Virus record (IMG/VR): IMGVR_UViG_3300025536_000182
DNA: 64,000 nt
Reading direction: 5' to 3' (one strand)
From: a virus
Shown one piece after another: positions 1 through 43,014 of this stretch; the stretch's first letter is position 1, and each line of letters begins with the position of its first letter. The translations under genes and the position numbers were made by a program. The notes beneath the pieces were generated by a model. The model did not search any database. It had not been told where the DNA came from and was given only the letters and a program-made list of their open reading frames with translations.

Positions 1-1
1 G

Positions 2-439
2 CAGCTTGCAGAATTCTCGTCATTGAACTACATCAAAGAAGATCTCAATCTCAGACAGTCTTCAGATTCTTTTCGGGATGCGATGTATGTCTTGCTTGGA
101 GCTGACAAGTCGTTTAGAAAGATGGCACACAAGTTTGGAATATCGCCAAGACAGAACCAAAGAGTAAGGGCAAGACTTGATGACTGGCCAGAGAAGGATG
201 CAAAGAGAGTAATCCTTGAAGTGATGGGATCTTATCTCTGTCCTTGTGGATGCGGAATGAATCTTGTGACATCAAAGAGACATGTCGACTTGACAAGTGA
301 CAAGTTCTTTTGGGAGATAAGATTCAAGGACAAGAAATTCAAGATTCCAGAAAAGTACAGACAGAAATATAATATCACTCCGATTGCAATAGCTGAAAAA
401 GTCTGGGGCAAAAAATTCAAGCTCGCAGTATCGGCTTAA
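2..439 (+). CDS. 3' part of the 358-aa hypothetical protein (full copy at 41938..43014)
   Basis: Translation is identical to the C-terminus of 41938..43014; contains CPCGCG. Confidence 0.85.
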   Translation, partial: QLAEFSSLNYIKEDLNLRQSSDSFRDAMYVLLGADKSFRKMAHKFGISPRQNQRVRARLDDWPEKDAKRVILEVMGSYLCPCGCGMNLVTSKRHVDLTSDKFFWEIRFKDKKFKIPEKYRQKYNITPIAIAEKVWGKKFKLAVSA

Positions 440-733
440 CCTTTCTTATTATTGCCAAGTTCGTACTAACATCATAAACTGCGCTTGTGCAGCTATGGTC
501 AGTGTTCGGGACGCTAGAGCGGATTCAAAACCGCACCCGTTTTATATTCAATTAAGGTAATTTTAAAATACTATTGTAATATTGTAATATCGACCAAGAA
601 TGCATAGGAATAGCAGCATTTCAAATCCCGTAGCTGGGGGCAATAATACCAGTAAGAAAACAGCTATTGATTCAATAGTTGAAAATACCCAAGGTCTGAT
701 TAGAAAGGACCTTCTTTTGGAGAACGATTCATA

Positions 734-853
734 ATGACTGATGTCATATGTGGAGAATGTAGAGATCCAGTAAACGATGGTATTGGTTCTCATCCAAAAT
801 GCAGAGACAGAGCTTGTACTGCACAAATGAAACGTTATGGAAGGGCAATCTAA
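734..853 (+). CDS. Small Cys-rich protein (39 aa)
   Basis: Hand-translated MTDVICGECRDPVNDGIGSHPKCRDRAC...; its TAA overlaps the next ATG (TAATG). Confidence 0.55.
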   Translation: MTDVICGECRDPVNDGIGSHPKCRDRACTAQMKRYGRAI

Positions 854-993
854 TGGCAAAAAGAGTTACCCTTATGATGGACGAGTCAATTGACAAGAAG
901 CTCAGACTCCAGCAATCAAAGCAAATCAAGGAAACAAACGCCTCAGTAAGCTATTCGCAGGTAGTCAATGAGGCACTTGCAAAGGTGCTGTAA
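853..993 (+). CDS. Ribbon-helix-helix DNA-binding protein, Nitrosopumilus-type
   Basis: MAKRVTLMMDESIDKKLR...SVSYSQVVNEALAKVL shows the beta-strand/helix/helix pattern; ATG at 853 is coupled to the upstream stop. Confidence 0.75.
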   Translation: MAKRVTLMMDESIDKKLRLQQSKQIKETNASVSYSQVVNEALAKVL

Positions 994-1305
994 ATGGACT
1001 CTGGAAAACAAATGATCTTCGAAGACAGAAGAAAAAAAGCAGCAAAGGAAGTCATTCTGAAACGAGTCGGGGAACACACTTTCAACGTTGTTGACAAGGA
1101 AGGAAACTTCAAGTATAAAGTCTCAACCGTTCCAGGAAAGGAAGACTGCGAGTGTCCAAGCTTTGTGCAAAACAACACAAAGAAACATGATGATGCAACA
1201 GGTGAATTCTTTCTCTGCAAGCACATCTATGCTGCACAGTATGTGGAAAGTCTGGAAGAAACAATCAAGGAAAATTCCACACATACAAAGGAGATGGCAA
1301 GCTAA
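994..1305 (+). CDS. SWIM zinc-finger protein
   Basis: CECPSF-x17-CKHIYAA matches the CxC...CxH SWIM signature. Confidence 0.85.
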   Translation: MDSGKQMIFEDRRKKAAKEVILKRVGEHTFNVVDKEGNFKYKVSTVPGKEDCECPSFVQNNTKKHDDATGEFFLCKHIYAAQYVESLEETIKENSTHTKEMAS

Positions 1306-1931
1306 TGCCTTTCCTCAAAATATCAGAAGCCAGGGATGCAATGAAGGGAAGCTTTGTTGGAACCATCAGGTCAGCAGGAGATCTAAAGTCTGGAACCAAA
1401 GACGGAAGAGACTGGACAAAAAAAGTATTCATCATCGAGGATGACAGTACGGCAGTCGATATGGTAGCTTGGGGAGATGACATCTCAAAGTTCAAGGTTG
1501 GAAACAGATACGAGATTGTAAATCCGTTATGGAAGGAATACAACGGTGACATCACCGTAAACATCAGCAGGTACTGCCAAGTCAAGCTGATAGGAACTTC
1601 TGGAACCCAGTCAACGATGGAAGCCTCAACACAGTCTGCTCCAACTCAGACAAACACAACACAGTCAACTGTCCCACCATCTGACGAATATCTACAGAAT
1701 AGACAAAAAGAGATTCTTGAAAAAGAGGCTGCAAGAAACAAACAGATTGAAGAAAAGACAAAGTCTGTATTCACAGCAGAACAGCTTGTAGACATCGACA
1801 GCGAGCTTGACAAGCTGATTGTCCTGGAATCAATAGTGACAAAGAAACTAACAGGTGAAACATTACCAAATCCAGCAAAAGTCGGAATGTTGATGAAGTT
1901 TCTTTATGACAAATTAGGGGCAAAACAATGA
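1305..1931 (+). CDS. ssb: Single-stranded DNA-binding protein (single OB fold, archaeal SSB/RPA-like) with a S/T/Q-rich linker and helical C-terminus
   Basis: IIEDDSTAVDMVAWGD...FKVGNRYEIVNPLWKEYNGDITVNI parallels the crenarchaeal SSB pattern DETG-V-L-LWG...GQVV-I-NA...FKGQVQLN. Confidence 0.85.
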   Translation: MPFLKISEARDAMKGSFVGTIRSAGDLKSGTKDGRDWTKKVFIIEDDSTAVDMVAWGDDISKFKVGNRYEIVNPLWKEYNGDITVNISRYCQVKLIGTSGTQSTMEASTQSAPTQTNTTQSTVPPSDEYLQNRQKEILEKEAARNKQIEEKTKSVFTAEQLVDIDSELDKLIVLESIVTKKLTGETLPNPAKVGMLMKFLYDKLGAKQ

Positions 1932-2128
1932 CTGATTGCGCGTCATGTGGAAACAGATTGGAAACTCTTGGTGGTAGAATGAAACCTTTCTGTGCAGTAG
2001 AAGAATGTACAAACTATGATAAAAAATCCACAAGACAAGCTGAAAGATTATTGGGACCAAAGAATCAAACCCAATAACTTTCTTTTTTATTTTTTCTTCT
2101 TTATTGTAATTCAATCATAAAGATACCA

Positions 2129-41138: not shown

Positions 41139-41280
41139 GTCAAGAAAACTTTGGAATTAAATTCTCAGAAGAGAGTATTTTTTGTAGTTGTGATTGTCAT
41201 AGTAAGGCAAAGCTTGTGCATCCAAACCACTGTTTCTTTTGTACCGAAATACATAAACCTGAAAATTACGAAGATAAGAA

Positions 41281-41691
41281 ATGAAAAATTTGTTTTATTC
41301 GTTATATGTTAGATTAGAATTTTTTCTCAAACGACATATGATATGCGTAATTAAAGGTCATGTAAAACATAAAGATTTTCCGTATAAAATAGAAACAGTT
41401 TATGGACTGCCCGTTTTATCAGATCATCATTGTTGTTTGAGATGTGTTAAACCCCTACTTTTATTAGAAAAATTAGAAGAACAAATTAAATTAAGAGGAT
41501 TACCAATTCCAGAATGTTGTAATGAATTAAACAAACTTAATCCGTATCATACATTTTTAGAGAAAGAAATTACAAATCTAATGGAATTAAAATCAATGCA
41601 TGATGATACTTGTACATGTGATAATTGTAGAGATTTAATCATAAAAATCTCACAATACAAGGCAGAATATGACAAAATCATGAATTCATGA
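41281..41691 (+). CDS. Cys-rich hypothetical protein (AT-rich coding region)
   Basis: CVIKGH...CLRC...CTCDNC. Confidence 0.6.
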   Translation: MKNLFYSLYVRLEFFLKRHMICVIKGHVKHKDFPYKIETVYGLPVLSDHHCCLRCVKPLLLLEKLEEQIKLRGLPIPECCNELNKLNPYHTFLEKEITNLMELKSMHDDTCTCDNCRDLIIKISQYKAEYDKIMNS

Positions 41692-41694
41692 AAA

Positions 41695-41859
41695 ATGAAA
41701 GAATCTGGAAACATCTCAAAATCACAGTATCCTGGAACAAAGAAAAAATCATGGTGTACAATATGCCGTCAAGAGTTGAACCATCTTAGCAGAGTAGAGC
41801 AGGATCTTCATGCAGAAAAATGCCTAAAGGAATCAATAGAGCAAAAGAAGCTAATTTGA
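41695..41859 (+). CDS. Small C2HC (UBZ-like) zinc-finger protein
   Basis: Hand-translated WCTICRQEL...DLHAEKCL. Confidence 0.55.
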   Translation: MKESGNISKSQYPGTKKKSWCTICRQELNHLSRVEQDLHAEKCLKESIEQKKLI

Positions 41860-41863
41860 TTAG

Positions 41864-41895
41864 TTGGTAGCTCATAATTGGTAGCTCATAATTGG
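41864..41895 (+). repeat. Tandem 14-bp repeat TTGGTAGCTCATAA x2 plus TTGG
   Basis: Read directly; about 45 bp upstream of the 41938 start, next to an AT-rich promoter-like stretch. Confidence 0.75.
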
Positions 41896-41937
41896 CATGA
41901 CGTGCCTTGCATTAAATACTAAAAATTAAAACTTTGA

Positions 41938-43014
41938 TTGACTGTGGAACCTAAACATCAGCTAATCGATGAAATCACACCGATTATAGCCAACAATCTA
42001 TCTGAATCTGAAAAACAGGCAGCGATACTAAAACTGCAAAAGCAGGAATCAGAGATCAGAAACGGCATTGCAGACACTGAAAGCATTATCCACATTGCAC
42101 TTTTCACTTCCGAACAGGAAATAATCAGAAGATGGGCAACACGTCTGAAACAACTGCACTATCTTGGTGCATATGAAAAACCAATCAACACAATATCAGC
42201 TCACATAAAATGGCAGATTGGAAAAATGTCACTTCCGCTGGAGAAAAAAGATAACCTTATTAGAAATATATCACGTTCATTAGATGAGGAATTCAAACAG
42301 AATTCTGACACAGGACAAAATGTCCCTGAAAACACTTCCGCTTTTTGCAACACAGAAAACTCTTTCATTTTTGCTGCAATGACAGCTTTCAAATCTTATC
42401 ATGAAACTTTTGTAGAAATTGCAGACACTCTCTTGCAGCATCTTGAAGACCGTCAAATCAACAAGGAATTTTGCAATGTCCTGGAATGGGAAGAGATTGC
42501 AGAGTTCTGTACCATACTTGCAGCAATGCAAGAAAAAATAAAAGATGCTCACAAGGATTCTGTAAATCTCGACAAGCAGCTTGCAGAATTCTCGTCATTG
42601 AACTACATCAAAGAAGATCTCAATCTCAGACAGTCTTCAGATTCTTTTCGGGATGCGATGTATGTCTTGCTTGGAGCTGACAAGTCGTTTAGAAAGATGG
42701 CACACAAGTTTGGAATATCGCCAAGACAGAACCAAAGAGTAAGGGCAAGACTTGATGACTGGCCAGAGAAGGATGCAAAGAGAGTAATCCTTGAAGTGAT
42801 GGGATCTTATCTCTGTCCTTGTGGATGCGGAATGAATCTTGTGACATCAAAGAGACATGTCGACTTGACAAGTGACAAGTTCTTTTGGGAGATAAGATTC
42901 AAGGACAAGAAATTCAAGATTCCAGAAAAGTACAGACAGAAATATAATATCACTCCGATTGCAATAGCTGAAAAAGTCTGGGGCAAAAAATTCAAGCTCG
43001 CAGTATCGGCTTAA
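41938..43014 (+). CDS. Hypothetical protein (358 aa)
   Basis: Long ORF with a TTG start spanning the repeat junction, which confirms circularity. Confidence 0.85.
   Translation: MTVEPKHQLIDEITPIIANNLSESEKQAAILKLQKQESEIRNGIADTESIIHIALFTSEQEIIRRWATRLKQLHYLGAYEKPINTISAHIKWQIGKMSLPLEKKDNLIRNISRSLDEEFKQNSDTGQNVPENTSAFCNTENSFIFAAMTAFKSYHETFVEIADTLLQHLEDRQINKEFCNVLEWEEIAEFCTILAAMQEKIKDAHKDSVNLDKQLAEFSSLNYIKEDLNLRQSSDSFRDAMYVLLGADKSFRKMAHKFGISPRQNQRVRARLDDWPEKDAKRVILEVMGSYLCPCGCGMNLVTSKRHVDLTSDKFFWEIRFKDKKFKIPEKYRQKYNITPIAIAEKVWGKKFKLAVSA

Follow-up and report, generated by a model that had tools for sequence, protein, structure and literature searches.

Genome of a probable temperate tailed virus of Nitrosarchaeum with an attachment site between rpo7 and mrp

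The window analysed here, a 64,000-nucleotide stretch of IMG/VR record IMGVR_UViG_3300025536_000182, very probably holds the whole genome (42,575 bp) of a temperate tailed double-stranded DNA virus. The tail is probably non-contractile, and the virus very probably has as its host a Nitrosarchaeum closely related to N. koreense, an ammonia-oxidising member of the Nitrosopumilaceae. The genome encodes a Duplodnaviria-type morphogenesis module, comprising an HK97-fold capsid protein, a portal, a terminase split into ATPase and nuclease parts, a Mu-F protein and a tail tube, and an archaeal-type early and replication module comprising a TFB, a HerA-type ATPase, an MCM helicase and a DNA methylase. 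An integrated copy of this virus lies between two host genes, at a site that is empty in close relatives of the host.

Ammonia-oxidising archaea (AOA) drive nitrification in oceans, soils and groundwater. To our knowledge, their tailed viruses are known only from metagenomic fragments and short proviral remnants, and since these remnants lack att sites and replication genes, the occurrence of genuine tailed-virus lysogeny in AOA had been uncertain.

Genome unit and integrated copy

The window is composed of a 42,575-bp unit and an exact second copy: positions 42576..64000 are identical to 1..21425 at 21,425 of 21,425 nucleotides, with 0 mismatches at an offset of 42575. The unit has a GC content of 38.8% and contains about 70 open reading frames (ORFs), almost all of them on the + strand. 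A single ORF (41938..43014), specifying a 358-aa product, spans the wrap point. A sequence-only reading of this DNA had taken 1..42575 to be one complete genome, and both the exact wrap and the junction-crossing ORF agree with this, subject to a caveat on closure that is taken up below.

Two contigs were found to encode capsid and integrase proteins identical to those of the window, one of 42,585 bp from the Joint Genome Institute (JGI) and one of 44,687 bp from ENA. The JGI contig carries a 10-nt terminal repeat which is the att core, GTTTAAATAA; since it is bounded on both ends by this core, the window circle represents that contig closed upon it. The circular closure is based on the 10-nt core and on a 50-nt unitig over the joint of the viral P and P' arms.

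The ENA contig contains the integrated copy. It consists, in order, of 377 nt of host DNA in which an rpo7-type gene begins, then attL (CCTATGTTTAAATAA), the virus, attR (CCTACGTTTAAATAA), host mrp/apbC and a DUF359 gene. The virus in this contig differs from the window by 1 mismatch in 11,343 nt and by 0 in 11,200 nt compared (99.99% identical). The host site, attB, is the region that separates rpo7, which encodes RNA polymerase subunit E', from the divergently transcribed mrp/apbC; the left-flank gene was recognized as Rpo7 from the homologous locus, which has SHS2_Rpb7-N and S1 domains beside Spt4.

The host flank (1.7 kb) is 93-95% identical to five Nitrosopumilaceae genomes and 76-81% identical to the lineage that carries a second, related provirus. 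Mrp protein sequences gave names to two of the five: Nitrosarchaeum koreense MY1 (WP_007551075.1) and a metagenome-assembled genome, or MAG, of a Nitrosarchaeum sp. (MEC4848866.1). In N. koreense MY1 (G065) and in this MAG (G043) the site is unoccupied, and their attB agrees with the two host arms. The core GTTTAAATAA was thus found in attP (window), in attL and attR (ENA contig and metagenomic run X1) and in attB (both empty sites), so that a common core and both occupied and empty sites, the marks of site-specific integration, were all observed. The window integrase, used as the query, had no match in the five closest host genomes, and a capsid relative was present in only one of the 401 Nitrosopumilaceae genomes searched.

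Two further claims of the earlier reading are supported by these data. That the virus is temperate is borne out by the integrated copy, whose attL and attR are flanked by host genes, by the empty attB in close relatives and by the attP joint in unitigs derived from reads. That the host is an ammonia-oxidising archaeon is upheld by the identity of the flanks to Nitrosarchaeum and by a collinear relative on a 776-kb contig of a Nitrosarchaeum sp. MAG; the best matches did not fall in another archaeal phylum.

Integrase and attachment site

The elements of the attachment region are as follows.

26509-26520 and 26555-26566, no strand: perfect 12-nt inverted repeat bracketing the core; candidate integrase or regulator binding arms
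26531..26545, no strand: attP core CCTACGTTTAAATAA, common to attL, attR and attB
26535..26544, no strand: strand-exchange segment GTTTAAATAA, 10 nt, also the terminal repeat of the source contig
26601..27872, + strand: predicted divergent tyrosine integrase, 423 aa, ~57 nt 3' of the core

Judged by its sequence relationships, the product of 26601..27872 is probably a divergent tyrosine recombinase. It matches a PHROG integrase family (E 9.8e-4) and received an Atlas feature score of 0.98, with 32 clusters carrying PF00589, mostly from Nitrososphaerota. Its homologues number 66; many possess PF00589, and those that do are 35-52% identical. A PDB sequence search with the integrase returned nothing useful.

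A single C/T difference at position 26534, to the left of GTTTAAATAA, distinguishes viral from host origin, which places strand exchange within the 10-nt segment. The inverted-repeat arms are centred on the core, are conserved in the arms of the related provirus and are split by integration between attR and attL. We propose that the integrase binds these arms of attP and exchanges strands in the core; the splitting of the palindrome could tie expression or directionality to the integration state.

The core also contains a TATA-box-like sequence, TTTAAATA; the mrp start codon follows some 25-30 nt downstream, which is about the distance at which an archaeal TATA box is expected. It may be the TATA box of the mrp promoter. 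As TTTAAATA is within the core, integration would leave a promoter element before mrp at attR, and at attL it would place host DNA and the core before the integrase gene. An attP within a tRNA gene was considered and rejected: the viral tRNA-Phe lies 250 nt from the core, inside the integrated copy, and the host site has no tRNA.

A related provirus in another host lineage

A search of species-representative genomes with an alignment of capsid homologues gave one match, on the 776-kb contig of the MAG 'Nitrosarchaeum sp. ECS25A1'.

JAILWJ010000001.1, ~137,891-178,671: ECS25A1 provirus, 40.8 kb

This provirus is collinear with the window, and 36 of ~71 ORFs are shared at 30-85% amino acid identity, among them the genes for capsid (82%), integrase (77%), methylase (85%), MCM (54%) and TFB (45%). 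It likewise possesses a split terminase and an attB between rpo7 and mrp, with the core CTATGTTTAA and homologous P and P' arms, and it is linearised just upstream of the integrase gene. In two related genomes that lack the element (G074 and G004) the left and right flanks abut with a 10-bp overlap, so that the provirus extends over 40.8 kb between copies of the direct repeat CTATGTTTAA. Its proteins have been annotated only as hypothetical.

Genome-wide nucleotide similarity to the window is only ~27%. Several features of the window have no counterpart in the provirus, namely the tRNA, the SSB-like gene, the DUF6527 cluster, the two ParB-like genes and the 444-nt terminase insert. Its host belongs to a genus-level group that excludes N. 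koreense. The MAG (G001, contig C1) has ~43% GC around the provirus and is one of seven genomes in this group, from which N. koreense MY1 is absent; the genus given to it by NCBI may therefore disagree with the grouping by genome.

Head, packaging and tail genes

The morphogenesis genes, with the evidence for each, are listed below.

4994..5599, + strand: candidate small terminase subunit, from position only; 70% identical and syntenic in the ECS25A1 provirus
5596..6666, + strand: putative terminase large subunit, ATPase part, own ORF; adjacency and 76% identity over 354 aa to the provirus ORF
7111..7803, + strand: terminase large subunit, nuclease part, own ORF; phrog_38, E 2.2e-5, profile positions 591-713
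7899..9389, + strand: portal protein; phrog_9232, E 2.8e-5, residues 243-416, a weak match; 70% identical in the provirus
9364..10182, + strand: Mu-F-like minor head or head morphogenesis protein; PF04233 40.3 bits, above cutoff; phrog_115, E 7e-9
10253..12105, + strand: pair of head-module genes, for 422 aa and 195 aa, immediately 5' of the capsid gene; 60% and 72% identical in the provirus
12108..13307, + strand: major capsid protein, with an HK97 fold at residues ~139-399 preceded by an N-terminal helical domain; searches with a predicted structure
13360..24578, + strand: neck and tail module; family matches and synteny with the provirus at 30-54%
15601..16506, + strand: tail tube; Pfam
17138..17632, + strand: Neck1/gp10-like protein; Pfam and PHROGs
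17673..19793, + strand: tape-measure candidate, 706 aa; position and synteny
21482..22414, + strand: protein with a ConA-like lectin domain, one of the distal tail or fibre proteins of the module
25062..25773, + strand: two small membrane-spanning proteins, encoded last in the late operon; hydrophobic stretches in the translations

The capsid protein (12108..13307) has no sequence-family match and was therefore approached through its predicted structure. An AlphaFold2 model was built from 18 homologues, with a predicted local distance difference test score (pLDDT) of 62.8. With Foldseek, the top 50 matches to this model were all HK97-type capsids or encapsulins (E 4e-6). In VIA-align, a wide search that is independent of Foldseek, the top 50 were again all HK97-type, with Z up to 11.8 and a root-mean-square deviation of 3.6 over 173 residues; the capsid of Haloferax tailed virus 1 was among them (Z 9.7). 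Based upon the model, the capsid protein is assigned the HK97 fold.

The large terminase subunit (TerL) is encoded by two ORFs. The candidate small subunit (TerS) and the ATPase part of TerL have no family match of their own in Pfam or PHROGs. The ECS25A1 provirus also possesses two TerL ORFs, which are 9 nt apart and conserved at 72-80% amino acid identity, and in the window the two halves are separated by an additional 444-nt, frame-preserving insert (6667-7110) with small ORFs inside, one of which has a CxxC motif. An intron or intein in the terminase gene was considered and rejected: the provirus likewise has two ORFs, the insert contains in-frame stops and Rfam revealed no intron.

About 60 conserved N-terminal residues of the TerL ATPase ORF (window 5563-5781), which are 76% identical to the provirus, precede the first ATG, GTG or TTG at 5782, implying a non-canonical or coupled start. 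The provirus copy has TTG as its start codon.

The portal gene has the terminase genes on one side and the Mu-F gene on the other, as is canonical. By their location immediately before the capsid gene, the products of 10253..12105 are suggested to be scaffold and maturation protease candidates. Neither of these (10253..11521 and 11518..12105) gave a Pfam, PHROG or PDB sequence match that would indicate a capsid maturation protease.

Among the tail proteins, matches were found to PF18906 Phage_tube_2 (29.8 bits, cutoff 27), PF04883 (24.0 bits, cutoff 21.4) and phrog_5 Neck1 (E 1.6e-5). Since no sheath gene was detected among the scanned window ORFs, the tail is probably non-contractile. Of the full siphovirus-like morphogenesis module claimed in the earlier reading, the HK97 capsid, portal, terminase nuclease, Mu-F protein and tube therefore stand, and the term "siphovirus-like" derives from this absence of a sheath gene. 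The membrane proteins encoded at 25062..25773, which have no family match, could serve in lysis or egress.

Integrated and probable excised forms

Logan k=31 contigs of run X1, a subsurface metagenome and probably the source sample, were compared with the att region. In this run the 42,585-bp virus contig has a depth of 122, and the junctions are covered by three 50-nt unitigs: attP (P-core-P') at depth 77 with 0 mismatches, attR (P-core-host) at depth 58 and attL (host-core-P') at depth 60. These depths, taken over 50 nt, are noisy. A length of 50 nt is the expected branch size around a 10-nt shared core at k=31, so that each 31-mer of the attP unitig has letters from both viral arms. The P-P' joint therefore exists in the reads, beside integrated copies.

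Such a joint could also come from two tandem copies of an element that is only ever chromosomal, with the circle a computational closure on the att core; the element would still be a site-specific provirus. We consider this unlikely. A dimer would account for a virus depth (122) near twice that of attL and attR (58-60) and for a source contig which ends exactly at the core on both sides, and it predicts an attP depth similar to that of attL, the observed values being 77 and 60. A strict dimer, however, predicts equality, and attP exceeds both attL and attR. Furthermore, all compared genes are intact and the virus is identical between contigs, and a tandem array would itself require an active integrase and a circular intermediate. 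Given the short anchors of the attP unitig and depths that a tandem could also produce, active excision of the virus is likely, not proven.

Several points weigh against the interpretation of this element as a complete temperate tailed virus. A circle closed on the att core would not, alone, prove circularity. The attP unitig extends just 20 nt beyond the core in either direction, where the tool requires 31 for a bridge, and a virus depth about 2x that of attL also fits a tandem double prophage, in which a P-P' joint would arise with no excision. One and the same sample may underlie the ENA and JGI assemblies. The PF00589 match of the integrase (20.8 bits, E 3.5e-4) is below the 27.1 cutoff; the confidence of the capsid model is moderate; the portal and TerL nuclease matches are weak (E ~1e-5); and the TerL ATPase part, protease, TerS and tape measure were assigned by position or synteny only. 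The virus is, moreover, known here from sequence alone.

Early, replication and accessory genes

The remaining features are as follows.

1305..1931, + strand: probable oligonucleotide-binding (OB)-fold single-stranded DNA-binding protein (SSB), residues ~1-105; Atlas leads only
2378..3280, + strand: tandem DUF6527-type Cys/His proteins, two of three ORFs with a match; PF20137 78.5 bits (3011..3280) and 28.6 bits (2378..2662)
26215..26287, - strand: tRNA gene, GAA (Phe) anticodon; Rfam tRNA 61.5 bits and ARAGORN
30458..31393, + strand: viral TFB/TFIIB homologue; PF00382 47.4 bits (cutoff 23.6), one repeat, residues 207-285
31569..31781, + strand: 70-aa Cys-rich zinc-ribbon-type protein, of a family found across Nitrosopumilaceae chromosomes
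31676..33565, + strand: HerA/FtsK-type P-loop ATPase with a long C-terminal extension; PF01935 36.3 bits, PF01580 24.4 bits
34843..36924, + strand: MCM replicative helicase, preceded by a ParG-like ribbon-helix-helix (RHH) protein (34511..34846); PF00493 101.6 bits, PF17855 28.3, PF09274 24.6
37204..40130, + strand: N6/N4 DNA methyltransferase (37204..38148), two ParB_N-like paralogues and a C2H2-finger protein

The MCM and TFB genes, both of which had been recognized from the sequence, were recovered by Pfam. The MCM contains the P-loop AAA+ domain and the lid, as the cutoffs for PF00493 (23.3) and PF17855 (27.4) were both exceeded. The viral TFB aligns with host TFBs over residues 8-306 at 22-30% identity, the highest value being to the closest of ~8 host paralogues; its first repeat and zinc ribbon were not detected by Pfam. 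The viral MCM is 33% identical to that of the host and at most 28% identical to those of archaeal tailed viruses, and with the 30% identity of the TFB to its closest host paralogue this argues that both are old viral genes and not recent captures.

The methyltransferase matches PF01555 (129.2 bits) and, like the HerA-type ATPase, exceeds the Pfam cutoff; ParB_N was found at E 4e-4, below the cutoff, and the zf-C2H2 match is weak. Neither a DNA polymerase, a primase nor amoC had been noticed in the earlier reading, and no such Pfam family was matched in the 60 ORFs scanned; from this absence, the virus would appear to depend on the host replisome. Following excision, the viral TFB may redirect the host RNA polymerase, and the viral MCM, with the OB-fold protein, may recruit the host primase and polymerase; the DNA would then be packaged by the two-piece terminase.

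Two small genes that the sequence-only reading had named, an SSB (1305..1931) and an RHH protein (853..993), are only leads. For the former, the Atlas points to archaeal OB_Ssb-like clusters (0.86; TM score 0.78 by target, 101 residues), and there is no Pfam match at E <= 0.01. The latter has no family match but is conserved in the related provirus at 62% identity. The conserved 358-aa product of 41938..43014 gave no usable match in PDB sequence and Atlas searches, and PDB sequence searches with a 132-aa protein and with the 195-aa head protein returned nothing useful.

The Cys-rich protein encoded at 31569..31781 had been compared with a family of Nitrosopumilus-type genomes, and this resemblance proved to be general: homologues are present in 151 of 151 Nitrosopumilaceae genomes searched, at 62-66% identity (E ~1e-29). 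The family is strikingly expanded, with copy numbers between 1 and 36 (G031 has 36 and G055 has 26).

No tRNA of five N. koreense-type genomes resembles the viral tRNA at more than 78%. Its gene is part of the viral cargo, inside the integrated copy and where the P arm ends, and has no counterpart in the ECS25A1 provirus. A diverged copy of the tRNA region occurs in another subsurface run (X4). ARAGORN also reported a tRNA-Met (CAT) at 4854-4930, which falls below the Rfam tRNA gathering score; only 26215-26287 reaches it. Between the tRNA and attP, on the + strand, a candidate 38-aa ORF with two CxxC pairs, zinc-ribbon-like, was picked out by eye at 26374-26490, for which the gene caller of the public record gives a 43-aa product.

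Relationship to known viruses and elements

The virus is probably a new genus, or a taxon of higher rank, among the temperate archaeal Caudoviricetes, and not a new kind of system. For tailed viruses, intergenomic nucleotide similarities of >70% and >95% delimit genus and species, respectively, and the nearest relative found, the ECS25A1 provirus, is far below the genus threshold. No tblastn match for capsid, portal or TerL and no blastn match for 7.8 kb of DNA were found among the 50,697 phage and archaeal-virus records of INPHARED, and the capsid protein and capsid alignment revealed no relative in the IMG/VR collection scanned. The virus thus belongs to no species or genus in these records and has no high identity to a virus described in them, in keeping with its earlier designation as probably undescribed and as a possible new genus or family. 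Metagenomic homologues of the capsid number 22, several of them on 35-42 kb contigs.

We regard it as improbable that this virus, or a near-identical one, has already been described under a name or accession outside the collections searched. A 2026 survey reported five proviruses in 1,078 Nitrosopumilaceae genomes (PMC13573593), which may include the ECS25A1 provirus; the contig has for years been publicly available in a JGI metagenome, and the literature examined did not extend to subscription journals and supplementary catalogues. Against this, no paper describing the virus was found in the literature searched, neither protein nor DNA matched the deposited records, the IMG/VR collection scanned yielded no relative, and the ECS25A1 provirus itself is only ~27% similar genome-wide.

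Head-tailed proviruses of Thaumarchaeota, namely Nvie-Pro1, NCAV2-Pro1, NitIsl-Pro1 and CalSub-Pro, are <20 kb in size and without recognisable att sites or replication genes (PMC6563490). Like the window they contain TerL, portal, HK97 major capsid and tail genes in Nitrososphaeria genomes; unlike them, the window possesses an integrase, mapped att sites, MCM and TFB genes and a free-form junction, a comparison made by description only. For Nvie-Pro1, NCAV2-Pro1 and CalSub-Pro a gene transfer agent (GTA)-like nature has been raised (Krupovic et al. 2019, PMC6563490), and that precedent, the split terminase with an ATPase ORF that lacks a canonical start codon before 5782, and the lack of an identified protease (Pfam, PHROG, PDB) would suit a defective provirus or domesticated GTA-like element in place of an infectious virus. 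This is very improbable for a 42.6-kb element with an integrase, attP, attL, attR and attB, MCM, TFB and methylase, quite unlike those <20-kb elements; its absence from the five closest host genomes and the single occurrence among 401 indicate that it is mobile and not fixed, and the conservation of the split terminase in the relative at 72-80% amino acid identity points to selection, not decay.

Archaeal tailed viruses which encode their own MCM (for example, Methanocaldococcus fervens tailed virus 1, Haloarcula tailed virus 3, Halorubrum virus BJ1 and HJTV-4) resemble the window virus in this and in their size (30-46 kb). Their MCMs are 24-28% identical to that of the window over 34-65% of the protein, but they have no detectable sequence match to its capsid, portal or TerL, and their hosts are from another phylum. 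The capsid fold is held in common with Haloferax tailed virus 1. From marine AOA, no viruses have been isolated other than the Thaspiviridae (Nitrosopumilus spindle-shaped viruses NSV1-3), with spindle-shaped virions and 27-29 kb linear genomes (PMC8491892). They infect the same host family, Nitrosopumilaceae; their spindle shape, as opposed to the HK97 capsid and tail module of the window, indicates an unrelated virion architecture.

Taken with the ECS25A1 provirus, a second and diverged relative at the same site in another host lineage, the record provides a genome that is complete, a host placed in a named genus and a base-pair-resolved integration at a non-tRNA promoter site, with integrated and free-form junctions coexisting in a subsurface community. 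We suggest, tentatively, that this is the first tailed virus of AOA to be caught both integrated and excised in nature, that with ~20 metagenomic relatives it founds a new genus- to family-level lineage of the archaeal Caudoviricetes using a non-tRNA, TATA-containing rpo7-mrp attachment site, and that it is a potential first system for lysogeny in AOA. As cultured N. koreense MY1 has a matching empty attB, this system, if the suggestion is true, could be the first that is experimentally tractable; with this strain in culture and its attB intact, experiments on infection and lysogeny can be envisaged. In runs X2, X4 and X10 (aquaculture, subsurface and groundwater, respectively) only short pieces of 90-95% similarity were present at depth 2-5, which give no basis for a conclusion on habitat.

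The integrase family is also shared with integrated mobile genetic elements of Nitrosopumilales, whose tyrosine integrases are 46-60% identical to that of the window and are located on chromosomal contigs of 0.2-1.1 Mb. These elements carry other cargo, with no virion genes in the 10 kb seen. In one of them (L031, 10001-21389 of the region taken from a 1.14-Mb contig of ERZ25069296) a 56%-identical integrase is found beside rpo7/spt4, as in the virus, which suggests that the rpo7-mrp intergenic region is an integration hotspot; its cargo includes IS66-type transposases, an MmeI-type restriction-modification enzyme and an rve integrase. In another, at a different site (L030, 10001-21308, from a 655-kb contig of ERZ26222911), a 60%-identical integrase is followed by a Prim-Pol, a 797-aa MCM and a 2,594-aa cadherin/Big surface protein.

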